From Planctomycetota bacterium (GTDB lineage: Bacteria; Planctomycetota; UBA1135; UBA2386), in contig JBKAGP010000001.1 of the NCBI GenBank assembly GCA_046290465.1, forward strand, positions 6,496,001 through 6,560,000: a stretch of DNA of 64,000 bases. Reading direction: 5' to 3'. Under the pieces are notes generated by a model. It saw only the letters and a list, made by a program, of their open reading frames with translations. It was not told the DNA's origin and did no database searches. How positions within the stretch are numbered: the first letter of the stretch is position 1; each line of letters starts with the position of its first letter. The position numbers and the translations under genes are program-made. Shown here piece after piece: positions 16,964 through 43,625 of this stretch.

Positions 16964-17593
16964 ATGCCACCGTCAACCATCGTCTCTCCCGCCTACGACC
17001 GCGTCCGCAGCAAGCTGGACACCGGCGACATCGTGCTGTTCCAGGGCCGCGGCTTCGTCAGCCACATGATCCGGCTGGGCACCAGCAGCCGCTGGTCGCA
17101 CGTCGGCATGGTCGTCAAGCAGGACGAGTGGGGCACGCTGATGTTGTGGGAGTCGCAGGGCATCCAGAACCTGACCGACGTGCTGACCGGCACCGCGCGC
17201 AACGGCGTCAAGCTGGTGGTGCTGAGCGATCGCGTCAAGACGTTCGACGGCGAGGTGTCGGTGCGGCGGCTGACCGGCTTCGAGCGCGACGCGGCGATGA
17301 AGCGCAAGCTGCGCGCGTTCCGCAACGAGGTGCGCGGCCGCCCGTTCGAGAAGAGCGTGCTGACGCAGATCAAGGCGGCGCTCGACGACGGCATCGGCCT
17401 CGGTCACAACGAGGAGGACCTGTCGAGCCTGTTCTGCAGCGAACTGATCGCCGAGACCTACCAGCGGCTCGGCCTGCTCGGCGACGAGCTGCCGTCGGCC
17501 GAGTACGTGCCGGCCGACTTCTCGAGCGAGCGCGAGGCGCGGCTGCACCTGCTGGGGAACGCCAGGCTGGGCAAGGAGCAGAAGCTGAAGTGA
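16964..17593 (+). CDS. Permuted papain-like NlpC/P60 (YiiX/YebB-like) cysteine hydrolase
   Basis: GDIVLF, WSHVGMV (His before Cys), FCSELIAETY, PADF. Confidence 0.85.
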   Translation: MPPSTIVSPAYDRVRSKLDTGDIVLFQGRGFVSHMIRLGTSSRWSHVGMVVKQDEWGTLMLWESQGIQNLTDVLTGTARNGVKLVVLSDRVKTFDGEVSVRRLTGFERDAAMKRKLRAFRNEVRGRPFEKSVLTQIKAALDDGIGLGHNEEDLSSLFCSELIAETYQRLGLLGDELPSAEYVPADFSSEREARLHLLGNARLGKEQKLK

Positions 17594-17621
17594 CGGCGGC
17601 CTGACGTCAACGCGCAAACGC

Positions 17622-17699
17622 GCAACCACCGCATACGGAACCGGGTCATCCTGCGCCGCGAAGCGGCGCAGGATGAACCCGGTTCGGTGCGGTGGTTGC
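17622..17699. terminator. Long imperfect inverted repeat between convergent genes
   Basis: GCAACCACCGCA..GAACCGGG.TCATCCTGCGCCGC-gaa-GCGGCGCAGGATGA.CCCGGTTC..TGCGGTGGTTGC. Confidence 0.6.
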
Positions 17700-17732
17700 C
17701 GGGCGGGTGGTGCCCGGCGTGGTCTCGGGGGC

Positions 17733-19010
17733 CTAGTTCCAGGTGACGCGGCGCAGGTTGGTGCGGCCCAGATAGCTGAGGTCGTTGCCGAACGCGACGC
17801 CGACGATGTCCCAGGTCTGGCCGAAGAAGGTGGCCATGCCGAGCGCCGGGATCGCCAGCGGCTGCGGATCGGCGCTGCCCGACCACGCCAGCGGGTTGCC
17901 CGGCGTCGGCGTCAGGTTGAACAGCACGAACGTCAGCGCGTCCGGCTGCAGACCGAAGAACGGGCCGGTGTCGACCGGCAGCTGCGTCGAGGCGCTCATC
18001 AGCAGGAAGCCGAAGCCGGTCCCGTTCGGCGTGTTGTCGACCTCGAAGTAGGCGCCGAGCGGAGCGACCGCCTCGGCCCGCAGGCGGAACGGCTCGGTGG
18101 TTCCGCCGACCACCGCGCAGCCGCGCGAGTAGCCGTTGCCGTTGGGGTAGGTGATCGAGCCGTTGGCCGTCGCGGCGATGCCGCCGGGCGGGATGGTCGC
18201 GACGTTCGGCAGCACGTGGGTCGCGTAGTACTCACTGAGCAGGATGTCGCCGTTGTGGTCGAAGGCGGCGCTGCGGATCGTGCCCGGGCTCGATGGCGTG
18301 CCGAGCGTGCCGTAGTAGTACTGCGGCGCCGACGAGAACTGCAGGTCGACGCGGCCGGCGCTGCCGCCGGTCACGAACACCAGCTGCTGGCTCGGGCCGT
18401 CGACCAGCAGCTCGACCAGCGAGCCGAGCCCGCTCTGCACCAGCTGCGCGTTGCCGTTGCCGGACGCGAGCCGGAACACCCGGCCGTCGTTGGTGCCGAC
18501 GTAGAGGTCGCCGGTGGTCGGCGAGACCGCGAGGCACGTCGACTTGTTGCTCCACGGCTGCGTGCCGGTGGTGATCGCCGTGGCGATGCCGGTGTCGACG
18601 TCGACGCGGTGCAGCTGGTAGTAGCTGCTGAGCAGCACGATCTCCGAGCCGGAGGCGTCCCAGGTCATCGCGACCGGCGACGCGAACTGGCCGGCCGGCG
18701 CGACGACCGACGACACCGTGCTGGTCGCGGAGGTGAACTCGATGCGGATCAGCTGGCCGTTGGTGGCGCCGCCGACCGTCGAGCTGCAGACGAACGAATC
18801 GGGCTCGCTCGGATCCCAGAGGATGTTCGCGATCCCGATCGGCGCGGCGAACGACGTCGACGACGCGCCGCTGGCGCTCAGCACGCCGACGTAGCTGTTG
18901 CCGGCCGTGACGACCTGGCCGGCCTGGAAGAACTGCGGAGTCTGCGCGTCGGCGATCGACGACAGGGTGAGGGTTGCCAGCAGTGGCAGGACGAGTTGGT
19001 TGGTGTTCAT
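17733..19010 (-). CDS. Secreted beta-propeller-like protein with C-terminal beta domain
   Basis: Signal peptide (ADA-Q), blade-like repeats (LAVSPTTGDLYVG, AAFDHNGDILL). Confidence 0.75.
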   Translation of the reverse strand: MNTNQLVLPLLATLTLSSIADAQTPQFFQAGQVVTAGNSYVGVLSASGASSTSFAAPIGIANILWDPSEPDSFVCSSTVGGATNGQLIRIEFTSATSTVSSVVAPAGQFASPVAMTWDASGSEIVLLSSYYQLHRVDVDTGIATAITTGTQPWSNKSTCLAVSPTTGDLYVGTNDGRVFRLASGNGNAQLVQSGLGSLVELLVDGPSQQLVFVTGGSAGRVDLQFSSAPQYYYGTLGTPSSPGTIRSAAFDHNGDILLSEYYATHVLPNVATIPPGGIAATANGSITYPNGNGYSRGCAVVGGTTEPFRLRAEAVAPLGAYFEVDNTPNGTGFGFLLMSASTQLPVDTGPFFGLQPDALTFVLFNLTPTPGNPLAWSGSADPQPLAIPALGMATFFGQTWDIVGVAFGNDLSYLGRTNLRRVTWN

Positions 19011-19059
19011 GCTCTCTTTCGTGGTGGTGCGACCGGCGACGTGCCGGCGCTGCCGCGGA

Positions 19060-19087
19060 GAGCGGGACCCGCTGCGGATCGGTTACG
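19060..19087 (-). promoter_or_regulatory. Putative ECF promoter CGTAACCG-N13-CCCGCTC
   Basis: One of three identically spaced copies; about 50 nt upstream of ATG 19010. Confidence 0.65.
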
Positions 19088-19140
19088 AGCTGGGCGAAAA
19101 CGTCGGCGATCGAACCGGCGCACCCGGGCAGGTGCCGCGA

Positions 19141-20520
19141 TCAGCGTCGCTCGGCCGCGACCAGCTCGAACCAGGCGGCCGCCAGCGCGGCGTCGGCGCG
19201 CGCCGACTCGCCCGCGTCGTGCGCGTGGATCGCCGTGCGCAGCGCGGTGAGCAGCGGGGCCCATGCGCCTGGCGCGGCGCCGCTGGCCGACGAAGCGGCG
19301 GCGAGGCCGCGGCGCAGGCGATCGCGGTCGGGCGCGCGACCGTCGGCCGGGGGCGGTGCCAGCAGCGACAGGTGCAGCGGCAGCCGTTCGTGCTGGCCGA
19401 ACTCGTCCAGCACCGCGGCGATCCGGTGCGGCGCGAACGACGCGTCGGGCCCGTCGGCGGCGTCGTCGGTCCAGACCGTGCGGCAGGCGCGGATCCAGAA
19501 CCAGTAGGCGCGGGCGCGGTCGCGTTCCGCCGAGCCGGCGTCGGCGGCGGCGATGCGGGTGTCGATCCGCTGCAGTTCGTCCTGGAACGTGCGCGCGTCG
19601 CGCACCGGTGGGGGATACGGGCAGCGATCCGGCCAGCCGGCCGTCGACCCCGGCCAACGCCAGAGCACCGCGATGGCGGCGGTGGCCAGCAGCAGCGCGA
19701 GCGCCAGCAGCCAGCGGCCGCGTCGGTTGGTTGCGGCGGTTGCCGGGCCGGCAGCCGATCCCGGCGGCCGATCGTTCGCCGTTGGGGCCGCCGCCGCCGC
19801 CGCGACGCCGCGGTCGCGCAGCCGGCTGCGGTCGTCGTCGGCCGTCGGGGCCGCCCCGCGGTGGCCGAGCAGGTGCAGGAGCTGCTGCAGGCCGAGATCG
19901 ACCAGCGTCAGGCGCCGGCCGGCATCGCGGCCGCTGACCACCAGGTGTTCGTCGTCGATGGCGCCGTGCGCGAGGCCGAGCTGGTGGGCCCGCGCGATCG
20001 CGTCGGCCAGCTTCCCGAGGTCGCTGCGCAGCCGCGGCGGCGCCGCGCCCAGGTCGTCTTCCGCAGCCAGTGGGCGGCCCGGCACCCAGTCGCGCGCGAA
20101 CCAGTGCTGGCCCGCATCGTCGCGGCCGATCGCGCGGAAGCGCGCCACGCCGCGCGCGTCGATCCGTTCGAGCGTCGCGACCAGGTCCCCGAGCCGCCGT
20201 ACAAGCTCCGGATCGGCGCTCGGGGCCGATTCGATCACGTGCAGGGCGACCGGGCAGCCGTCGCGTTCGTCGTCGGCCAGCAGGGTGCGCCCCCAGGCTC
20301 GTCGCTGCACCGTCGTGCGGGCGCGGAACGGGCCGAACACGTGGCCCGACGGCGGTGGCTCTCGGTCGCCGACGTCGACGTCGGCGCAGATCTCGAGGAT
20401 CCCGTGTCGGTGGTCCGGATGTCGGCGCAGCAGCTCCTGCAGCCGAACGGCCTGCTCGCCGGCGTCCTCGAGGTCGAGGATCTCGAGGGCGGCCTCTTCG
20501 ATGGGGTCGGGAAGGGTCAC
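19141..20520 (-). CDS. Membrane-anchored Ser/Thr pseudokinase
   Basis: Kinase-like N-lobe with VALH for VAIK, HGAIDDEH for HRDLKPxN and DLG for DFG. C-lobe truncated, then TM and helical domain. GTG start inferred. Confidence 0.65.
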   Translation of the reverse strand: MTLPDPIEEAALEILDLEDAGEQAVRLQELLRRHPDHRHGILEICADVDVGDREPPPSGHVFGPFRARTTVQRRAWGRTLLADDERDGCPVALHVIESAPSADPELVRRLGDLVATLERIDARGVARFRAIGRDDAGQHWFARDWVPGRPLAAEDDLGAAPPRLRSDLGKLADAIARAHQLGLAHGAIDDEHLVVSGRDAGRRLTLVDLGLQQLLHLLGHRGAAPTADDDRSRLRDRGVAAAAAAPTANDRPPGSAAGPATAATNRRGRWLLALALLLATAAIAVLWRWPGSTAGWPDRCPYPPPVRDARTFQDELQRIDTRIAAADAGSAERDRARAYWFWIRACRTVWTDDAADGPDASFAPHRIAAVLDEFGQHERLPLHLSLLAPPPADGRAPDRDRLRRGLAAASSASGAAPGAWAPLLTALRTAIHAHDAGESARADAALAAAWFELVAAERR

Positions 20521-20638
20521 GTCCAGGAACGAACTTGCAGCCGTGCACGGGCAGCGCGGGCCGCCATCCTCCGCCGCCGCGACTTGGATGTCACGTGCGG
20601 TTCGGCTAACACCCTGGCTGCAGGATCTGCGAGGATCC

Positions 20639-20666
20639 TGTAACCGCGCGCGGGGAGAGTCCGCTC
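20639..20666 (+). promoter_or_regulatory. Putative ECF promoter TGTAACCG-N13-TCCGCTC
   Basis: Repeated motif immediately upstream of ATG 20676/20688. Confidence 0.65.
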
Positions 20667-20675
20667 CTGCTGCTG

Positions 20676-23492
20676 ATGGGAACCACCATGCCAGAATTGC
20701 ACCGTCTATCGTTGGCCGCAGCCGCCCCGGTGGCGCTCGCGGCGTTCCTGCTGCCGGCTTCGGCCGGTTGCCAGCAAGAGGCGCCGGACCAGGTCCGGGC
20801 GGCCCTGGTCGAGGCCTGCCAGGGCCGGAGCACCGCGGCGAACGTCGTGGTGTTCCCGATCCAGTTGATGGAGACCGACGGTCCCTATCTGCGCTTCGGC
20901 CGCGCCGGCGACAAGGTCGCGGACTGGGTCGCCAAGGGCCTGCGCTCGGCCAAGGTCGACGGTGGCGCGCCACGGGTGATGGTCGGTGGCCGGCTCGCGG
21001 CGTCGCTGCGCAAGGCCAACCGTCCGCCGGAGGCCTACGACCCCGAGTTCGCGCTCGACCACGCGGCGCTGGTCGGCGCCACCCACGCGGTGGTCGGCGA
21101 ACTGTACTGGGAGTCGCGGCGGCTGCGCCTGGAGCTGCGCCTGTTCGACGTGGTCGACGGTGAAGGCGTCGAGATCGGCCAGTACGACCAGGACCTCGGC
21201 GGCCCTGCGGCCTGGCCCGGCCGCTTCGGCGGCAAGCTGGTCACGGCGATGGAGTCGGGCTCGCGCACGCCGTGGGCTGCCGGCGGGGTCGATCCCGATC
21301 CCGACGTCGAACTGCAGGCGATCGGCGAGGCGGTCGGGGCACGGATCCGCGACGCGGCCGGTGCTGCCTGGAGCCGGGGCCGGGTCGTGCTGGTCGCGGC
21401 GGACCAGCAGGGCCAGACGTCGCAACTGACCGGCGACGTGCTCACGGCGGTGCGGGCGGTGCTGGCCGACGCGGGCGTCGAGACCGTCGCGTCGGACGGC
21501 CTGGCGCGTTCGCTGCAGGCCGACCGTAACCGCTCCCTGTGGCACTGGGGCTCGGCGATGTTGTCCGGCGACCGGCAGGCGGTCGCGGCCGGCCTCGGCG
21601 AGGCCGGCTTGCAGCACGCGCTGTGGCTGCAGGTGCGCGACCGCGGCAACGGCACGTTCTCGCTGTCGGCGACGCGGGTCGATGCCGACGGCCGCACCAG
21701 TACGATCCCTTGCGGGACGTTCGGCCGGGTGCCGGCGCTCGGCGCGTTGATGGCGCGGCGCCATGCCGCGCAGCGCGCGCCGCTCAGCACCTTCGAGGCC
21801 GACCCGCGTTCGGAGCTGTTCCTGGCGGTCGATCAGGCCGCCCGCAAGCTGGCCGACGCCAACCGGTCGCGCCTGCAGCCCGGTGACGCGCTCGGGCTCG
21901 GGGGTCTGCGGCTCGGCTCGCAGCGCAAGTTCGACGACCTGCTCGACAGCTTCCGCGAACAGGTCGATCGCTGGCGTGCGGACCTCGAGCGCGAACACGC
22001 GTCGGCCGAGCCGGTCGAACGGCGCCGGCTGGTGCTCGACTCGGAGGCCAAGCTGCAGTTCGGCGACCGGCTCTACCGTTCGTTGCGCCAGGCCGAGGGT
22101 GCGCTGGCGCAGATGGAGCACGCGCGGCTGGCGATCACGGCGTCGACCAGCGATCTCGAGGACCTGCGTTCGCGGCTGCGGGATTCGCTGGCGGCGGCCG
22201 GGCTGCCGTTCGCCGGCGGCGACGAGGAGATCGAGAAGGTGCTGGCGCAGCACCGCGCGATGCAGGACGTCGCGATGCTGCTGCGCGAGCCGATGCCGCT
22301 GCCGTCGGTCAGCGGGCCGCGCTTCATGATCGACGCGCGGGTCCGCGACGAGGGCAAGGGCCGCGGTGTGGTGGTGACGGCGTGCCTGCTCGACATGCAC
22401 ACCGGCCGGCCGACGCCGCCGGTCGAGGTGGCGACGCTGCCGGCGTGCCGTGACGGCATCCTGAAGATCGTTGGCGACATCGCGGCGAGCCAGCTGGCCG
22501 TCGAGGTGCCGAAGCCGGATCCGCGGCTGCTGGTCGACGTCGAGGAGGCCAAGGTCGCACCCGAGCCGGTGCTCGCCAGCGGCGAGCAGACCGAGACCGA
22601 GGCCGAGACCGAGCAGCCCGCGTCGGACGAGACCGAGCAAGCACCGCCAAAGCCTCGACCGGTGCGCAACCTCGAGCGCTTCCTCGAGGCGCGCGTCGGC
22701 AACGTCGTGATGCAGTTCCAGCGCGGCGAGCGGGACTTCGTGCACCACCGGGCCGGCACCTGCTTCGCGATCCGTCTGCCCGACGGACGCGGCGTGCTGG
22801 TCACCAACCGCCACGTGGTGACCGGTCGCGACGAGAAGACCGGCAAGATCGTGCTCGCGACCGAGACCCAGACGTTCGGCTTCCCCAAGTCGATCTGGGT
22901 GCACTTCCCGACCGCCGACGGCGGCACCGAGAACTTCGAGGCCAGGGTGCTCGGCTGGTCGCCGCGCTGTGACCTGGCGGTGCTCGAGGACCGGCGGCGC
23001 GATCCGGTGTTTTTCGAGATGGCGCCGGCCGACTCGGTGCAGCTCGGGGATCCGCTGCTGGTCGCCGGCTACCCGGGCAAGTCGCACGAAGCGCGCGGTC
23101 TGCAGGACGTCGTGGTCGTGCGCGACGACAACGGCACGCCGCGGATCGGAGCCGACGGCCGGGCCGTCACCAAGGCCTCGGACCTGATCTTCAGCGGCGG
23201 CGCCGGCGACGTCAAAGGGCTGGTCGACATCTTCGTGACCCGCGGCGCGTTCAACTCGTTCGGCCGTCCCAAGCGCGGCGAGTTCCTCGGCCGCAGCGCC
23301 GCGTTCGACGCCAGCGCGTTCCACGGCAACAGCGGCGGTCCGGTGATGACCCGCGACCTCAAGGTGTTCGTGGTGCTGAACAGCGGGCGGTTCACGGCCG
23401 AGGTCGGCGAGAGCAACCCGCTCAACCTCGGCCTGGTGCTCGAGGACCACCTCGAGGAGCTCGTGCGCCTGGCCGGCCAGGAGGGCAAGTGA
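20676..23492 (+). CDS. Lipoprotein with CsgG/FlgO/TolB-N-like domains and C-terminal trypsin-like serine protease
   Basis: Lipobox SAGC. Triad motifs TNRHVV, DLAVL, GNSGGPV. Repeated 'VVGELY..LELRLFDVVDG'-type segments. Confidence 0.8.
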   Translation: MGTTMPELHRLSLAAAAPVALAAFLLPASAGCQQEAPDQVRAALVEACQGRSTAANVVVFPIQLMETDGPYLRFGRAGDKVADWVAKGLRSAKVDGGAPRVMVGGRLAASLRKANRPPEAYDPEFALDHAALVGATHAVVGELYWESRRLRLELRLFDVVDGEGVEIGQYDQDLGGPAAWPGRFGGKLVTAMESGSRTPWAAGGVDPDPDVELQAIGEAVGARIRDAAGAAWSRGRVVLVAADQQGQTSQLTGDVLTAVRAVLADAGVETVASDGLARSLQADRNRSLWHWGSAMLSGDRQAVAAGLGEAGLQHALWLQVRDRGNGTFSLSATRVDADGRTSTIPCGTFGRVPALGALMARRHAAQRAPLSTFEADPRSELFLAVDQAARKLADANRSRLQPGDALGLGGLRLGSQRKFDDLLDSFREQVDRWRADLEREHASAEPVERRRLVLDSEAKLQFGDRLYRSLRQAEGALAQMEHARLAITASTSDLEDLRSRLRDSLAAAGLPFAGGDEEIEKVLAQHRAMQDVAMLLREPMPLPSVSGPRFMIDARVRDEGKGRGVVVTACLLDMHTGRPTPPVEVATLPACRDGILKIVGDIAASQLAVEVPKPDPRLLVDVEEAKVAPEPVLASGEQTETEAETEQPASDETEQAPPKPRPVRNLERFLEARVGNVVMQFQRGERDFVHHRAGTCFAIRLPDGRGVLVTNRHVVTGRDEKTGKIVLATETQTFGFPKSIWVHFPTADGGTENFEARVLGWSPRCDLAVLEDRRRDPVFFEMAPADSVQLGDPLLVAGYPGKSHEARGLQDVVVVRDDNGTPRIGADGRAVTKASDLIFSGGAGDVKGLVDIFVTRGAFNSFGRPKRGEFLGRSAAFDASAFHGNSGGPVMTRDLKVFVVLNSGRFTAEVGESNPLNLGLVLEDHLEELVRLAGQEGK

Positions 23493-25417
23493 GCGACTTC
23501 CGCAGCGACCTGCCGCGGCAGATCGGCCGCTACCTGATCGACGAACGGATCGGCACCGGCGGCATGTCGGTCGTCTACAAGGCGCGCGATCCCAAGCTCG
23601 ACAAGAAGGTCGCGCTGAAGCAGCTGCTGCCGGAGTTCGCCAACGACCCCGACAAGCTGCGGCGGTTCATCGATGAGGTGCGCCGGATCGCCCGCCTCGA
23701 CGACCACGAGTCGATCCTGAAGGTGTTCGATTACGGCGAGGCCGAGGGCGGCCCGTACATCACGATGCAGCTGCTGGTCGGGGGCGACCTCGCGACGCAG
23801 CTCGACGAGGGCGCACCGCTGTCGTCCGAACGGGTGCGCAGCATCGTCGCGGCGATCGGCGGCGCGCTCGAGTACGCGCACCGGCACGGCGTCGTGCACT
23901 GCGACGTCAAGCCGAGCAACATCCTGATCGACCGGCTCGGCAAGCCGTTCCTGGCCGACTTCGGCATCTCGCGGGTGATCAACGACCTGCTCGCCGGCGA
24001 CGAACAGATGCCGAGCATCTACACGCCCAAGTACGCGAGCCCCGAGCAGGTCCGCGGCCTGCAGCCCGACGAGCGCAGCGACATCTACTCGCTGGCGGTG
24101 GTCGTCTACGAGATGTGCGCCGGGGTGTCGCCGTACGGCGACCGGCCGAGCCTCAGCGCGCTGTGCGACGCGATCGTCGGCGAGCCGCCCGCGCCGCCCA
24201 GCCGGCACAACCCGTCGGTTCCGGCCGCGCTCGACGCCGCGCTGCTGGCGGCGCTGGCCAAGGATCCGGAGGGGCGGCCGCAGGACGTCGGCGCGTTCGT
24301 GCGCAGCGTGATGGCGGCGCTCGACGCGGCGCCGACTCCGGCGAGCGAGCGCACCACCCAGGTCAGTCCGGGGCCGTTGCCGCAGCAGCCGGCGGCGCCG
24401 CGCGGCGGCGGCGGCGGGCTGCTCGTCGCCGTGCTGCTGCTGGCGATGGTCGGTGGTGGGGTCTGGTGGTTCTGGCCGCCGCTGGACGACGGCGACGGGC
24501 AGCAAAGCGCCGAGTCCGACTGGACGCAGGGTGAGCCAACCGAGGACGACGCGAACGCCAGCGATGGCACCAGCCGCAGGGACGGCGTGCCGGCCGACGC
24601 CAGCGTGCAGCTGCGCGTGCCGCCGGTGCCGCCCGGCGAGCAGCGGCTGGCGCGCATCCTGCTCGACACGACCGGCAGCCAGCCCGAGGTCGCCGCCGAG
24701 GCGCTGCGGCAGGTGCGGCAGATGGCCGCCGAACTGTCCGCGCTGCCGCGCTACGGCGTGGTCTCGGTGGCGGTGGCGCCACAGGCAGTCGGCGACGACG
24801 ACCTGTCGCGCCACGTCGCGCTCGCGGGCGCCGACGCGATGCTGCTGGTGCGGCTCAACGGCCGCGCCGACCCGAAGGTGCTGCCCGGCGTGACCCGCTA
24901 CCGGCTCGAGCTGTCGGCCTGCGAACTGCTCGTCGCCGGACTCGATCCGCGCGCGGCGCCGGCGCGCACGGCACCGGTCGCGGCGGGCCCGCCGGCGGCG
25001 CTGTTGGCCAACTCGGCCGCGGCGGCGGCGCAGGTCGGCCTCCAGGCGGTGCTGCCGAAGGCGACGACGTTCGCCCGCGAGTTGCTGCAGCAACTCGCCG
25101 ACGCCAAGGACCGCCCGTACCTGGTCACGTTCGACGCGGACGGGGCGCAGGCCCAGCGCCTCGAAGCGCTGTGCGAGCGCCTGCGGCGGGGCGAGGCCAC
25201 CGAGGTCGAACTGCTGGCGACCGCTCCCGACTGGCGCGTGCTGGTCCGGTCCGAGCAGGCTCCGGCGGCGTTCGTCGCCTCGTTGGTCGACGCGGTCGCC
25301 GCCGAGTTTCCGGCGCTGCGCGACCGGGTCCCGGCGGCCGGCTCCGACGAGTCCGGCAGCTACGTGGTCGCCTTCGAGAACCACTCGCGCAACCTGACGG
25401 TGCGCCTGGTGCCGTGA
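23489..25417 (+). CDS. Membrane Ser/Thr protein kinase with extracytoplasmic domain
   Basis: GTGGMS, VALK, HCDVKPSN, DFG, YASPEQ, DIYSL, then TM LLVAVLLLAMVGGGVWWFW. Confidence 0.93.
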   Translation: MSDFRSDLPRQIGRYLIDERIGTGGMSVVYKARDPKLDKKVALKQLLPEFANDPDKLRRFIDEVRRIARLDDHESILKVFDYGEAEGGPYITMQLLVGGDLATQLDEGAPLSSERVRSIVAAIGGALEYAHRHGVVHCDVKPSNILIDRLGKPFLADFGISRVINDLLAGDEQMPSIYTPKYASPEQVRGLQPDERSDIYSLAVVVYEMCAGVSPYGDRPSLSALCDAIVGEPPAPPSRHNPSVPAALDAALLAALAKDPEGRPQDVGAFVRSVMAALDAAPTPASERTTQVSPGPLPQQPAAPRGGGGGLLVAVLLLAMVGGGVWWFWPPLDDGDGQQSAESDWTQGEPTEDDANASDGTSRRDGVPADASVQLRVPPVPPGEQRLARILLDTTGSQPEVAAEALRQVRQMAAELSALPRYGVVSVAVAPQAVGDDDLSRHVALAGADAMLLVRLNGRADPKVLPGVTRYRLELSACELLVAGLDPRAAPARTAPVAAGPPAALLANSAAAAAQVGLQAVLPKATTFARELLQQLADAKDRPYLVTFDADGAQAQRLEALCERLRRGEATEVELLATAPDWRVLVRSEQAPAAFVASLVDAVAAEFPALRDRVPAAGSDESGSYVVAFENHSRNLTVRLVP

Positions 25418-25450
25418 AGGTGTCGGCCGCCGTGCCCGTTCTTCCGTTCT

Positions 25451-25478
25451 TGTAACCGTCTGCCCGCGCCCTCCGCTC
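25451..25478 (+). promoter_or_regulatory. Putative ECF promoter TGTAACCG-N13-TCCGCTC
   Basis: Repeated motif about 46 nt upstream of ATG 25525. Confidence 0.65.
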
Positions 25479-25524
25479 TCCCGGGCGCGAACCGCATTCC
25501 TACCACCACACGTTCGATCCGATC

Positions 25525-26118
25525 ATGAAGCACCCGATCCGTCTCGCTGTCCTGTTCCTCGCCGCTGGCCTCACGACGTCGTGCGCGTCGGCGCCGGTCC
25601 GTGACATCAACTACTACTGCACGGCCGAGGTGTTCGAAGGCCTGATGCAGGATGCTTGGGCGAAGTGGCGCACCAAGGGCGGTGTCGACAAGGCGCTCGC
25701 GAACAACGAGCTGGCCAACGAGAACCTGCGCGTCACGATGACCAACTGGGACAACCACGTCACCGGGCTCAACGTCGCCAGCCTCGACAGCGAACTGCGG
25801 GCCGCGGTGTCCCAGGAGGATCGCTGCCTCTACATCGACCGCGCCGCGATGCTGATCCTGTTGGAGCGCGCCAAGGCGGACGGTGCCCGCGTCGATCCGT
25901 CGCGCCCGGAGCAGATCTTCCTGCCGCAGGTGCGGGACATCTACCAGGCGGCGCTGCGCAAGCAGGGGCAGAACATCCACTTCGCGGCCCGCGGCACGCT
26001 GACCAAGCAGCGCGACGTGCTGATGTTCGAGATGTCGGTGCTCAACGTCGACACCGGCCTGACCCAGTCGGTGATCGCGCGGCAGACGATCCCGGACCTG
26101 CCGGACGAACTCTACTAG
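25525..26118 (+). CDS. LpoB/CsgG-like lipoprotein
   Basis: Lipobox TTSC, LpoB-like pattern (FEMSVLNVDTG), next to a COG3014-like gene. Confidence 0.65.
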   Translation: MKHPIRLAVLFLAAGLTTSCASAPVRDINYYCTAEVFEGLMQDAWAKWRTKGGVDKALANNELANENLRVTMTNWDNHVTGLNVASLDSELRAAVSQEDRCLYIDRAAMLILLERAKADGARVDPSRPEQIFLPQVRDIYQAALRKQGQNIHFAARGTLTKQRDVLMFEMSVLNVDTGLTQSVIARQTIPDLPDELY

Positions 26119-26158
26119 TCCCGTCCGGCGAAGCGACCCGTCGACCAGGGCTCCTCAC

Positions 26159-26210
26159 GACCCGATCCCCACCCGACCCGATCCCCACCCGACCCGATCC
26201 CCACACGACC
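26159..26210 (+). repeat. 16-bp tandem repeat x3
   Basis: GACCCGATCCCCACCC x2, then GACCCGATCCCCACAC + GACC, just before ATG 26214. Confidence 0.9.
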
Positions 26211-26213
26211 GTC

Positions 26214-26768
26214 ATGATCCGTTCTTGCACCCTGCTGTTGTTCGCGCTGTGCATCGGCTTCGCCGGCTGCGCCTCGTCCCCGACCTACGACGGCCGTCCC
26301 GACAGCCTCGCCGAGGCGGGGGACCAGTTGATGCAGCAGGCGTGGGCGGCGTGGCGCACCAGCGGTGGCCTGCGCGAGGCGGTCGACGCGACCGAGCTGG
26401 ACCGGCAGGTCCGGATCGCGGTCGTCGACTGGCGCATCGACGGCGGTGCCGACCTGTCCCGCGACGAGCTGCAGCGGGAGCTGCGGCATCAGGTCGCGTC
26501 GACGCCGCGCTGTCGCTACGTCGCCCCCGAAGAGGTTCGCGCGCTGGTGCGCGAACTCGACCACGAGGCCGAGGCCGCGAGCGCGGCCGGCGCCCGCGCC
26601 TGGCAGCTGTTGTCGCAGCCGCCCGCGACGTCGCCGTCGACCCCGCGCATCGACATGGTGGCGCGCGCGACGATCCGGCGACGCGGCGAACGGCTCGTCG
26701 CCGACCTCGAGATCGTCGACGCGCGTTCGCGACGGCAGTTCTCGGTGCGCGGCGAAGTGCTCTACTAG
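26214..26768 (+). CDS. LpoB/CsgG-like lipoprotein, paralog of the upstream gene
   Basis: Lipobox FAGC. Shares LMQxAWAxWRTxGG, ELR..V, RCxY and terminal LY with 25525-26118. Confidence 0.65.
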   Translation: MIRSCTLLLFALCIGFAGCASSPTYDGRPDSLAEAGDQLMQQAWAAWRTSGGLREAVDATELDRQVRIAVVDWRIDGGADLSRDELQRELRHQVASTPRCRYVAPEEVRALVRELDHEAEAASAAGARAWQLLSQPPATSPSTPRIDMVARATIRRRGERLVADLEIVDARSRRQFSVRGEVLY

Positions 26769-26814
26769 TCTCCCCTACATACGTTTCGACCTCCCCCCGA
26801 AGCAGGTGAACCTG

Positions 26815-28353
26815 ATGAAGACGTTGCATTCGATCCCCCTGGCGCTGCTGGCGCTGGCCGCGGCGTGCTCGGCCCCCGGCGCCGACGTGCGGCTGCAGAA
26901 CAGCTACCTCGTCGGCGACTTCGACGGCGCCGAGGCGGTGGTGCGCGACGCCGGTTACGGCGACAGCGCCGAGCTCGAGTCGAGCCACTTCCTCGACGCG
27001 ATGAACCGCGGCATGATCCGCCTCGCCGAAGCCGACGGTACCGCCGCGTGCGAGCAGATGAGCCACGGTCAGCTCTACCTGAAGTCGCTGCTGCTGACGC
27101 CCAGGGGCTTGGCGGGCACGGCCACCGAGGCGGGGATCTCGATGCTCGGCGACGACTATGCGCTCGAATACACCGTGCTGCCCTACGAGGTCACGATCGC
27201 CGAGTCGATGCTGGCCCTGGCTCATGTCGCGAGTTCGACGGCCGCGACGCGCAAGGAGCACTTCGACCAGGCGCGCAACTACTCGCGCGACGCGTCGAGC
27301 CGTTCGATCGCGGAGTGGTCGACGGCCTACTTCGGTGAGGAGACCGCCGGCACGCTCGGCGACGGCTTCCGCGTCGACCACACCCACACCGGGCTGGCGC
27401 ACTTCATCTACGCGAGCTGCCTCGAGCACGTCGACGGCGCCCAGGCCGCGAAGCTGTTCGAGGAGGCGGCCAAGATCGAGGACCTGCCCGGGATCCGGGC
27501 GCACGCCGAGAAGGGCGCGCCGGCACCCGGCACGCAGCCGGTCTGGGTCTACGTCGTCGATGGCCCGGGGGTGGTGCGCGTTCGCGAGGACCTGAAGGCC
27601 GGCCGCGACGTGCAGACGCTGGTGCGCTACTTCTACACCCTGCAGCGGCCAGGCCAGAACCCGATCGTCGACCTGGTGCCGACGATGACGTTCCCGGTGC
27701 CGGCGCTCGCCGAGATCGAGAATGGCGTGCAGCAGGTGATGGTCGCGGTCGACGGCGGCCAGCCGACCGCGGTGCCGCTGATCGCCGACATCGCGCGCAC
27801 GGCGCAGTCGACGTTCGACATCGATCGCGACGTGCGGATCGCCCGCCAGATCGTGCGCCGCATGATCCGCGAAGGCGGGCGGGCCGTGGTCAAGAACAAC
27901 GGCAACTCGTTCTGGGATTGGCTGGCGGGCCTGTTCAACCAGGGCGCGACGGCGCTCGAACGGGCCGACCTGCGCGCCTGGCAGACGATGCCGGCGGGCG
28001 TGCGCGCGGTCCGGCTCGACCTGCCGGCCGGCCGCCACCGCGTCGACCTGGACGTGCGCGGCTCCGCCGGTGCGATGAAGATCGCCAGCGCCTCGGTGCC
28101 GGTGAAGCTCGCCGACCGGCCAGCACCGTCCGGCACGTCGATCGACATCGAGGTGCCCGAGGGTGGGGTGCCGGCGTTCGTCGTCGCGGTGGTGCCGTCC
28201 GCCGCGTGCGTCGGCACGCCGTCGACCAACCACGCCGCGGCGGCCGTCGAGGCCGCACCTGTCGATCCGCAGGCCGACCCGCAGTCGAACCCCGAGGCCG
28301 CGCCGCAGCCGCAACCCCGATCCAGGCGAGCCGATGCCTCCCGTTCCCGGTGA
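26815..28353 (+). CDS. COG3014-like helical lipoprotein
   Basis: Lipobox AAAC, LPYE, and ERADLRAWQTMP motif followed by LPAGRH. Confidence 0.7.
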   Translation: MKTLHSIPLALLALAAACSAPGADVRLQNSYLVGDFDGAEAVVRDAGYGDSAELESSHFLDAMNRGMIRLAEADGTAACEQMSHGQLYLKSLLLTPRGLAGTATEAGISMLGDDYALEYTVLPYEVTIAESMLALAHVASSTAATRKEHFDQARNYSRDASSRSIAEWSTAYFGEETAGTLGDGFRVDHTHTGLAHFIYASCLEHVDGAQAAKLFEEAAKIEDLPGIRAHAEKGAPAPGTQPVWVYVVDGPGVVRVREDLKAGRDVQTLVRYFYTLQRPGQNPIVDLVPTMTFPVPALAEIENGVQQVMVAVDGGQPTAVPLIADIARTAQSTFDIDRDVRIARQIVRRMIREGGRAVVKNNGNSFWDWLAGLFNQGATALERADLRAWQTMPAGVRAVRLDLPAGRHRVDLDVRGSAGAMKIASASVPVKLADRPAPSGTSIDIEVPEGGVPAFVVAVVPSAACVGTPSTNHAAAAVEAAPVDPQADPQSNPEAAPQPQPRSRRADASRSR

Positions 28354-28990
28354 TCCGGCGCCCGAGCGCGACGACGACAGCACGCTGTTCATCGCGCAGC
28401 GCGTGCAGGAGGGGCGGCAGCAGGCGTGGTCGCGGCTCGCGGCCAAGATCGACGAGTTCCTCGGGCGGACCCGCAACGTCCGCCAGCTGCCGTCCGCCTA
28501 CGAGCCCGACGACTACGTGCAGGAGGTGCTGCTGAAGTTGACCGTCGAGATCCCGCGCATGGAGCTGCGCTCCCGCAAGGAGTTCTGGGCGTTCGTCCGG
28601 CGCGTCGCCGACAACGTGCTGCGCGACCTGCAGCGGCTGGTGTTGGCCGACAAGCGCGGCGGCGGCCGCGAACGCCTGCTCGACACGGCCAATCCGCACG
28701 GCATGGACCTGCAGGATCCGGCCAGCTGGTCGGCGAGTGCGGAGTTCCGCGGCCGCGAGATCGAGCAGCTCGAGGAGGAGTGCGTCGGCGCGCTCGGCCG
28801 CGACGAGGCGCGGCAGGTCTACCTGCTGCGCCGCCGTCAGGGGCTCAGCTACGAGCAGATCGCCGAGAAGGTCGGACGCAACAAGCCCGGCACGGTCAAG
28901 GTCATCTACAAGCGGTCGCGCGACGTCGTGATCGCCCGCCTGCGCGACCGGCTCGACGGCTACGCGACCGGGCTGGCGAACCTCGACTGA
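28334..28990 (+). CDS. ECF RNA polymerase sigma factor
   Basis: Region 2 (AWSRL...DDYVQEV...[11 protein letters not shown]) and region 4 ([17 protein letters not shown]). Confidence 0.88.
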
Positions 28991-29001
28991 ACGCGTCGGG
29001 T

Positions 29002-30255
29002 TCAGTTCTCCAGCAGCCGCCGCGGCGCGAACATCGGCAGCGCCGGGTGCTCGCTGCTGCCGTCGACGATCATCTCGGCGAGGCTGCGACCGGCGAGGAA
29101 CGCGAACGACAGGCCGTAGCCGTTGAACGCCAGCAGCGCGAACTCGCCGGGCTGGCCCGGCAGCGCGCCGCACAGCGGCAGGCCGTCCGGCGAGCCGGCC
29201 ATGATGCCGGTCCACACGTGCGGGAACGGCACGTCGCGCAGCGCCGGGAAGTGCTCGTGCGCATACTGCAGCAGGTTGTCGGTGATCTGCCGGTTGTGGC
29301 CGGAGTCGTCGACCAGGTCGTGCTCTTCACCCGGGACCGACCAGCGCATGCCGCCGATCACGAAGCGGCCGCGGTGCATGCGGAAGTACTCGTAGCAGAA
29401 GTTGCTCGACATCGCGTAGTCGGGGAAGCGACCCGCGATCTCGTCGGGCAGCGCATCGGTCGCCAGGATCTGGCCGCGATACGCGAACACCGTGCGGGCC
29501 AGCAGCCCGGTGCGGTCGAGCTGGGGCGAAAGCGACGACGTGCAGTGCACGACGATCTGGCACGGCAGGCTGCGGCCGTCGTCGAGCTGCACGGTGAAGT
29601 CGCCGGCCTCGCCGTCGATCGCCCGCACCGCGCAACCCTCGGCGATCCGGGCGCCGGCGTCGCGGGCGCGCTGCGCCAGCCCGCGCACCATCGCCGCGGG
29701 CTGCACGATCGCTTCCTCGGCGAGGAACAGGCCGCCGTGGAAGCCGCGTGCCAGCGGCAGCCGTTCGGCGACCCGGTCGGCCGGGACCAGTTCGTGTTCG
29801 CGGCCCTCGTCGGCCAGCAGGCCCGCGGCCTGCTGCAGTTCGCGCCACTCGTGCGCCGTCTCGGCGAGCCGCAGCCCGCCCTGCTGACGCAGGTCGCAGG
29901 CGATGTCGGCGTCGCGCAGTTCCTGCAGCATCACGTCGTGGTTGCGCTGCAGGAAGTCCCACAGCAGCGGTGCGCGCTCGCCGCCGAACTGGCCGTGGAT
30001 GCGGTTGTAGTGCTCGCCGAGGCCGAGCAGCAGCTGGCCGTCGTTGCGGCCGGATGCGCGGCCGGCGACCTCGCCGGCCTCGAGCACGACGACGTCGATG
30101 CCGGCGCGGGCGAGGTGCAGCGCGGTCGAGACACCGGCGATGCCGCCGCCGATCACCGCGACGGTCGCGCGTTCGGGAACCGGTTCGCGAGGAAGGGCCG
30201 CTGCTTCGCGCAGCCAGGCACTCGTCGTTGCGGGTGGGTGGGCCACGGCGAACAT
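29002..30255 (-). CDS. FAD-dependent amine/amino-acid oxidoreductase (DAO/PuuB-like)
   Basis: [31 protein letters not shown]. Confidence 0.9.
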
Positions 30256-30462
30256 GGTGCGGGCGCGACGACGCCGTGCAAGCGATCCCCCCGCGGCGGC
30301 GACCGGGCGGTGCGAATCTACGCCACTCGGCGTAGGCGAGCGGCAGGGGGCGGCGGAGGGGGCGGCGGGCGGCGACCGCGCAGCGGGGCGGACGTCGTCG
30401 GGTGGCTCGCGGGGGCCGCGTTGGCGGCTACCGGGCCGGTCGCAACCGGAACGGGGCGCCGG

Positions 30463-30603
30463 TCAGCCCTTCATGATCGCCAGGAGGAACAGCATGCCGA
30501 TGCCCAGCAGGGTCAGGGCGACGGACGTGCGGTTCAGGCCGGCAGCGGAGGTGGTGGTGGTTCCTTCTCGCATTGGCTCGGGGTGGTGGGTGGTCGTCTC
30601 CAT
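30463..30603 (-). CDS. Small single-TM hypothetical protein
   Basis: METTTHH...[19 protein letters not shown]. Fills an otherwise empty gap; start uncertain (could extend to 30675). Confidence 0.4.
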
Positions 30604-42971: not shown

Positions 42972-43625
42972 ATGACCGAAACACTGCACGACATCGGCAC
43001 GCTCCAGGCAATGGACGAGGCCGCCTGGGCCGGCCTGCAGGAGGACTACTACCGGCGCATCTACTTCTACGTGAAGCGCTACGTAGGCGACCACCAGACG
43101 GCCGAGGACCTGACCCAGGACGTGTTCCTCGGCGCGGTGCGCGGCATCGCCGGGTTCGATCCGATCTACACGCTCGACCAGTTCCTGTTCGGGATCGCGA
43201 AGAACCGCGTCATCGACCACTACCGCAAGCACAAGCTGACGCTGATCCCGTCGAAGGCGGACGGCGACAGCGACAAGAGCCAGGTGTGGCTCGAGAACCT
43301 CGCGCCGGACACCTCGCCGTTGCCGAAGGAGCGGGTGGTCAAGGCCGAGGACGAAGGTCGCCAACGGCAGATCCTGGCGCAGATCCTGAAGGAGCACGTC
43401 GGCGAACTGTGGTCGGCCGGCGAGTTCCAGAAGCTGATGGTGCTCGAGTTCCTGTTCGTGATGGGCGGGCGCAACAAGGACGCCGCGGCGCGCTTCGGCA
43501 TCGCCGACGAGAAGTCCGTCGCCGGCATCAAGTTCCGGGCGGTCGAGCGCCTGCGCGGCATGGCTCGTCAGCGCGATCCGAACCACTCCCTGTTCATCGG
43601 ACTCTGGCAACCGGGGGCGCGATGA
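42972..43625 (+). CDS. ECF RNA polymerase sigma factor
   Basis: AWAGL...AEDLTQDVF...LFGIAKNRVIDHYRK, followed by a region-4-like HTH. Confidence 0.88.
   Translation: MTETLHDIGTLQAMDEAAWAGLQEDYYRRIYFYVKRYVGDHQTAEDLTQDVFLGAVRGIAGFDPIYTLDQFLFGIAKNRVIDHYRKHKLTLIPSKADGDSDKSQVWLENLAPDTSPLPKERVVKAEDEGRQRQILAQILKEHVGELWSAGEFQKLMVLEFLFVMGGRNKDAAARFGIADEKSVAGIKFRAVERLRGMARQRDPNHSLFIGLWQPGAR

Follow-up and report, generated by a model that had tools for sequence, protein, structure and literature searches.

We describe a two-box DNA motif, GTAACCG-N14-CCGCTC, that occurs three times in a 64,000-nt stretch of the genome of a Planctomycetota bacterium (the window, in what follows), and the block of eight genes, A, B, C, D, E, E2, F, and G, in which it is found. 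The three motifs are probably promoters of the extracytoplasmic function (ECF) type that are read by the block's own sigma factor, G, which would thereby activate its own gene. The locus as a whole is probably a real, self-contained, autoregulated ECF regulon. The genome was searched as one contig of 6,594,045 bp with a GC content of 70.2%, within which the window lies.

Exact matches to GTAACCG-N14-CCGCTC were found at three places in the window, at 19060-19086 on the minus strand and at 20640-20666 and 25452-25478 on the plus strand, and the Y-extended form of the motif, YGTAACCG-N13-YCCGCTC, also gave three. In 100 dinucleotide shuffles of the window, the mean number of matches was 0.01 and none of the 100 reached three. 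The whole genome contained these same three sites and no others. Counted on both strands of the genome, the half GTAACCG occurs 134 times and the half CCGCTC 7,080 times, and the two are expected to occur together at one fixed spacing 0.07 times genome-wide, compared with the three occurrences seen at N14. The other spacers returned by this count were 12, 13, 32, and 43 nt, with one occurrence each. All three copies lie within 6.4 kb of a block of approximately 11 kb, and when the three regions were aligned, identity was confined to the two boxes, the spacers and flanks being unrelated. When up to three mismatches were allowed, the window contained 44 matches versus 39.2 ± 6.6 expected, which is the background level. 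The motif signal is three perfect copies and nothing beyond. A preliminary description of this DNA had reported three copies with constant spacing and unrelated spacers, and this was confirmed by the searches of the window and genome and by the alignment. The genome-wide scan that it had proposed placed 3/3 matches at this locus, and the exact form, all copies of which stand before gene starts, was far above the background frequency with which that description had contrasted it (3 versus 0.07).

Each copy is intergenic and oriented toward the next start codon; the distances given here were counted from the last base of the motif to the start codon. The first copy, P_A (19060..19087, minus strand; CGTAACCG-N13-CCCGCTC), is located in the gap between A and B, 49 nt upstream of the ATG of A (17733..19010, minus strand). 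The second, P_C (20639..20666, plus strand; TGTAACCG-N13-TCCGCTC), is located between B and C, 9 nt from the ATG at 20676 and 21 nt from the ATG at 20688 of C (20676..23492, plus strand). The third, P_E (25451..25478, plus strand; TGTAACCG-N13-TCCGCTC), is located between D and E, 46 nt upstream of the ATG of E (25525..26118, plus strand). Judging by sequence, ATG 20688 is the more likely start of C, because a 93%-identical relative (P0005) begins at the matching residue. The distances of 49, 9 (more likely 21), and 46 nt agree with the earlier statement that the copies stand 10-50 nt before, and face, a start codon. Three units are thus preceded by a motif: A, C-D, and E-E2-F-G. The last of these ends with G (28334..28990, plus strand), which encodes a divergent ECF sigma factor of 218 residues.

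The promoters of ECF sigma factors usually have a -35 element with AAC and a -10 element with CG, approximately 16-17 nt apart. The motif shows this layout, with an AAC-N17-CG geometry directed toward the genes, as expected from the bipartite ECF-type form assigned to it in the preliminary description. The block contains no sigma gene other than G, which is also the only one located downstream of a motif copy among the 124 matches in the genome to the sigma-70/ECF model TIGR02937. Because the motif has ECF geometry, is unique to this locus, and precedes three units, one of which ends in the block's only sigma gene, autoregulation by G is the best reading of the locus. The link between the motif and G is inferred from exclusivity, geometry, and position.

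The assignment of G as a sigma factor was examined using family models. A region 4 domain is present at residues 158-196 (PF08281, 27.9 bits, with a cut-off of 25.7), and the cut-off of the ECF sigma factor family PF07638 was also passed (23.0 versus 21.1 bits). The best NCBIfam model for G was TIGR02984, a Planctomycetaceae-specific sigma subfamily, at 42.5 bits versus a cut-off of 183.75. In the PDB, G matched the ECF sigma factor 9isn_F with an E value of 3.1e-5 over residues 14-195. From its sequence, G is not a phosphorylation-dependent sigma factor of the ECF43 type, because sigma-2.2 keeps an acidic motif, which reads EPDD in G and ESDD in a 96%-identical relative. Unlike the ECF43 sigmas, G is therefore not predicted to need phosphorylation of sigma-2.2 for binding of core polymerase.

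In the mechanism that we propose, GTAACC would serve as the -35 element and CGCTC as the -10 element, and RNA polymerase carrying G would start transcription approximately 6-8 nt past each CCGCTC. G would raise its own synthesis, giving positive feedback, and would also raise that of kinase D and of envelope proteins. With kinase D behind one of the promoters, activation of G would increase both D and G, which would amount to double positive feedback. No recognizable anti-sigma domain is present, with no match to an anti-sigma family for any block protein in Pfam or NCBIfam; for this reason we propose that the signal may enter via D and/or the membrane pseudokinase B, the gene of which has no motif. 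The predicted targets are all envelope proteins, save the kinase and the sigma factor itself.

Several observations weigh against this role of G. It was assigned by adjacency, and the genome has 124 sigma-family matches; its gene lies 2.9 kb and three genes past P_E, with gaps of 95 nt between E and E2 and 46 nt between E2 and F. Its scores for the Pfam model PF04542 (21.5 bits, cut-off 24) and for TIGR02937 (38.9 bits, cut-off 42.9) were below threshold. In the PMC7826278 supplement, no conserved promoter motif is given for the kinase-linked planctomycete groups ECF61 and ECF62 or for ECF267, and ECF59 has a conserved TC in the -35 element only, so that these groups offer no family precedent for the motif described here. 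Orthologues of G were absent from two collections, in which the genome contigs yielded 15 spurious sigma-4 hits (Streptomyces) and the metagenome contigs one spurious hit, and a search with C across 300 further genomes of the order gave no match. Finally, contigs approximately 98% identical to this DNA, from four runs, were compared over 18950-25600, and no change inside P_A or P_C was found among the 40 variants listed of 190, a result that at 2% divergence has almost no power for constraint. Of these 40 variants, the closest to the boxes were one at 19090 and, at 20637, the deletion of 1 nt.

The observation that the genome contains no other motif copy, so that no other sigma gene is preceded by one, makes it unlikely that the motifs are ECF promoters read by a sigma factor encoded elsewhere, with G being the target of a sigma-sigma cascade and not the reader. 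Candidate readers for such a cascade would be available among the 124 sigma-70/ECF matches, one of which is at 43023-43556 in the window, 14 kb downstream, with others just beyond both ends of the window. PMC3817407 discusses, among other topics, cascades in which an ECF that does not regulate itself is transcribed by another ECF, and the group entries of the PMC7826278 supplement report no conserved upstream motifs for the kinase-linked ECF groups of planctomycetes. However, relatives lack the block as a whole, which fits a self-contained set of sigma factor and promoters, and G is its most conserved protein.

The conservation of the block was assessed in diverged relatives found by protein search (P0003, P0005, P0006, and P0011), with identities of 77-96%. 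In one diverged relative set, the identity was 96% for G (with an identical region 4), 93% for C, 80% for E, and 77% for B, the last from a single relative. Divergence was therefore very uneven: within the block, G is the protein that has changed least in the diverged relative, and pseudokinase B evolves fastest. Among 40 relatives, there was no close orthologue of G save a remnant in one genome (G009), and a word-indexed protein search with G found only G itself. The remnant belongs to a genome of the same genus (locus L031, G009:C263, 4633-5443). There, a homologue of A (47-65% identity) is represented by its 3' part, which directly adjoins the 3' half of a homologue of G (69% identity); the flanks are non-syntenic. 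Either the whole block was deleted down to these two parts or the junction was created in assembly. As the remnant joins A to G, these two genes would form the ends of a single unit.

Paralogous ECF loci were collected from the 40 relatives and from the genome itself, which gave 28 loci with sigma factors 27-39% identical to G; the motif was present in 0/28. These paralogues represent a different family, apparently driven by a sigma-54-like element, and therefore no family-level promoter could be obtained from them. The element GGCATG[AT]TG..., typically TGGCATGATGTATGCTT, was carried by 9/28 of these kinase-family loci (L003, L007-L012, L014, and L030; own genome near 2585650), approximately 50-60 nt before the sigma start (approximately 160 nt in L012), and a tenth match, in L024, was located elsewhere. 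Its GG-N10-GC spacing looks like that of a sigma-54 -24/-12 promoter; if this resemblance is real, sigma-54 would control an ECF family.

Two conserved boxes at a fixed gap can equally form a bipartite operator, and we considered whether, instead of a promoter, the motif could be a site for a DNA-binding regulator that is not a sigma factor. The form and placement of the boxes make this very unlikely: the two differ from each other and are neither direct nor inverted repeats, their gap of 16-17 nt and their AAC/CG content match the -35/-10 geometry of ECF promoters, and all three copies share one orientation relative to the gene that they precede. Moreover, no DNA-binding protein other than G was found in the block by Pfam or NCBIfam, and no sigma-70-type promoter that such an operator might control was found across window positions 17500-30500.

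Of the 124 sigma matches in the genome, 123 (the one left out being the second piece of a listed frame) had their surroundings, ±12 kb, screened for any genome-unique 6mer-N14-18-5mer present three or more times. Contiguous AAC-type boxes were obtained at this locus only; elsewhere, the triples were repeats within coding sequence or isolated coincidences of 11 nt. GC-rich genomes yield many partial matches, the motif with up to three mismatches is at background, and this 11-nt screen turned up a few chance triples elsewhere, but chance co-occurrence or leftovers of duplicated or mobile sequence are exceedingly unlikely to explain an exact 13-nt form that is expected 0.07 times genome-wide and is seen three times within 6.4 kb, always intergenic and facing a start, in copies whose unrelated spacers and flanks show that they are not duplications.

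Genome-wide, there were 20 other matches with at most one mismatch at spacers of 13-15 nt, and most of them were intragenic. Two one-mismatch sites precede long open reading frames: 5567448-5567475 on the plus strand (spacer 15, 73 nt before the frame) and 6575301-6575326 on the minus strand (spacer 13, 35 nt before the frame). These two sites are possible weak additional targets. A further candidate, GGAACCG-N15-CCGCTC at window positions 7445-7472 on the minus strand, 38 nt before purL, is part of an inverted repeat or hairpin, GGGAACCGG...CCGGTTCCC, and was rejected as a chance match. Over genome positions 5794000-5808000, which hold another sigma locus, a search for exact 12-nt triples yielded no clear common motif.

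The two kinase-like proteins of the block were compared. D (23489..25417, plus strand; 642 residues) is a Hanks-type Ser/Thr kinase that matched PF00069 with 141 bits, and VALK41, HCD137 (HCDVK), DFG157, and SPE184 are all present. It has one membrane helix at residues 303-330 and an outer C-terminal domain. By its sequence, D is a complete Hanks kinase and is predicted to be active. B (19141..20520, minus strand; 459 residues) matched no Pfam family but aligned with the kinase domain of D in BLASTP (E 3e-5). Its motifs VALH, HGA(ID), and DLG align with VALK, HCD(VK), and DFG of D, and SPE is absent. It is organized as a cytoplasmic kinase-like domain, a transmembrane segment at 267-290, and an outer domain. 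Read from these motifs, B is a membrane pseudokinase in which the catalytic Lys and Asp have been lost.

If the motifs are read by G, as we favor, pseudokinase B might hold G in the resting state in place of an anti-sigma factor, and G-induced D might then release or reinforce the sigma factor; we regard this extension as rather unlikely. B is the only gene of the block not preceded by a motif, as expected for a component needed beforehand. Complex prediction for B(1-262) with G gave 0.36 versus 0.05 for the best control and was rated weak; the runs agreed in at least 24% of contacts, and the partner had a predicted local distance difference test (pLDDT) score of at least 60. The mark used for such predictions was reached by 51/78 solved complexes and 2/108 mismatched pairs, and at values of 0.60 or below by only 5 of these 78 complexes and by each of the 4 passing mismatches (of 180). 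Our literature search found no paper tying a pseudokinase to control of an ECF sigma factor. Were the extension true, a kinase/pseudokinase pair would replace the anti-sigma factor in an ECF switch whose sigma-2.2 has remained acidic.

As outlined in PMC3817407, an ECF sigma factor usually directs transcription of the operon that encodes it, using a conserved promoter upstream. The locus resembles the autoregulated ECFs treated there, within the framework of Staron 2009 and Rhodius 2013, in its bipartite promoters (AAC in the -35 element and CG in the -10 element, approximately 16-17 nt apart), in the motif copy upstream of the sigma-containing operon, and in a promoter with information enough to be private to one sigma factor. 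It differs from those described there in that no anti-sigma gene is cotranscribed, the sigma gene is the fourth in its unit, and the motif is defined by three copies in one genome and not across orthologues.

By analogy of context, G appears to belong with the kinase-linked ECF sigmas while working like an autoregulated ECF switch. The ECF43 group, with the examples EcfP/PknT of Vibrio parahaemolyticus and EcfK/PknS of Xanthomonas citri, has the DAED patch of sigma-2.2 replaced by uncharged S/T and a Hanks kinase at position +1, according to the passages on this group in PMC8999054 and PMC13147305. PMC8999054 notes that a DAED-like motif is retained in the remaining kinase-linked groups, that these may operate in another way, and that none of them has been characterized. 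As in the descriptions of ECF43, ECF59, ECF61, ECF62, and ECF217, the block here has no recognizable anti-sigma factor and has a Hanks kinase with one transmembrane helix nearby; like the sigma factors of the kinase-linked groups, G matches PF07638 and has a Planctomycetaceae-specific model as its best NCBIfam match. Unlike ECF43 as described there, G has the acidic EPDD and not S/T in sigma-2.2, and kinase D is at position -4, four genes upstream in a separate unit, instead of +1. The second, catalytically dead kinase homologue (B) also sets the locus apart from the kinase-linked groups in those descriptions, and its clear promoter motif contrasts with the entries for ECF61 and ECF62 (no motif) and for ECF59 (TC in the -35 element only) in the PMC7826278 supplement.

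Two further systems are comparable. Genomic Island 6 of Streptomyces coelicolor (SCO3450; 10.1101/247056) is a precedent for a strain-specific block containing a sigma factor together with a contiguous regulon of its own. That island consists of approximately 26 genes, mostly for small-molecule metabolism, with two anti-sigmas and experimental induction; the present block consists of eight genes for envelope proteins, has kinases instead of anti-sigmas, and is known from sequence alone. SigF of Caulobacter (ECF16) has the promoter GTAACC...CGTA according to its entry in the PMC7826278 supplement and shares the -35 hexamer GTAACC with the motif described here. SigF differs in its -10 box and in its sigma group (ECF16, with the DUF1109 anti-sigma NrsF), and it has no kinase.

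If the proposed reading by G is correct, the locus would offer a ready sigma-promoter pair in which three identical promoters are private to one sigma factor despite the 124 sigma-family matches in the genome, and it would also supply two candidate regulators, the predicted active kinase D and the dead kinase B. It could serve as a test bed for how a kinase controls a sigma factor with an acidic core-binding patch, and it would be a naturally occurring, tightly insulated pair of ECF and promoter such as orthogonal circuits employ. Biologically, it would be a further instance of a known design that adds no new principle, a clean but ordinary bacterial switch.

The gene map was drawn with reading frames chosen by GC content at third positions (GC3), which was 0.97 for A and 0.90 for B. 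C and D overlap at the stop of the former and the start of the latter, and AGGAGG is present 6 nt before the GTG of D. The unit beginning with E continues with E2 (26214..26768, plus strand), F (26815..28353, plus strand), and G, which overlaps the end of F by 20 nt, and G is followed by a convergent gene for an FAD oxidoreductase. The preliminary description correctly had the sigma gene at 28334 as the last of the unit starting at 25525, but overlooked E2 within it. Its gene inventory also lacked B and did not recognize that kinase D is in a unit separate from G. A was described there as a divergent gene for a secreted beta-propeller; the propeller fits the structure neighbors given below, while the divergent arrangement is modified by B, which separates A from C. 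A long near-perfect hairpin (17600..17735; -88.3 kcal/mol, z -7.8, with 0/200 shuffles as stable) follows A, between the convergent genes for A and a C92-family peptidase, and is likely the end of the A unit. No significant hairpin was found after B (z 0.27), and therefore A may also receive read-through from B. A terminator scan found 0 versus 3.3 expected, which is uninformative in such GC-rich DNA.

The remaining proteins are predicted to be exported or lipid-anchored. A (425 residues) is a beta-propeller-like exported protein without a match to any Pfam or NCBIfam family; its structure neighbors in the ESM Atlas were WD40, YVTN, PD40, and lactonase propellers with template modeling (TM) scores of approximately 0.5, and its best feature match was 0.95. 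C is a lipoprotein of 934-938 residues, with a signal peptide and cysteine box seen in the translation and a C-terminal trypsin-like peptidase domain (PF13365, 44.7 bits versus a cut-off of 27.6). F is a lipoprotein of 512 residues with no Pfam family that resembles COG3014-family or TPR-like lipoproteins (Atlas features 0.96, structure TM score 0.72). E (197 residues) and E2 (184 residues) are paralogous lipoproteins (BLASTP E 6e-15). The sequence family of E contained only 4 proteins among 1.84 billion representatives, and E had no sequence match in the PDB. An AlphaFold2 model of E built from 6 sequences had a pLDDT of 68.3, and its top Foldseek match was the C-terminal domain of LpoB (4q6z_A; E 5.5e-4, probability 1.00, but TM scores of 0.35/0.46), followed by TolB, CsgG, PelC, and GNA1162 with E values of 0.02-0.06. 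On the basis of this model, an LpoB/TolB-N/CsgG-like lipoprotein fold has moderate support for E. In the gap between E and E2, window positions 26158-26210 contain a tandem repeat of a 16-nt unit, CGACCCGATCCCCACC, in 3.3 copies with a 97% match.

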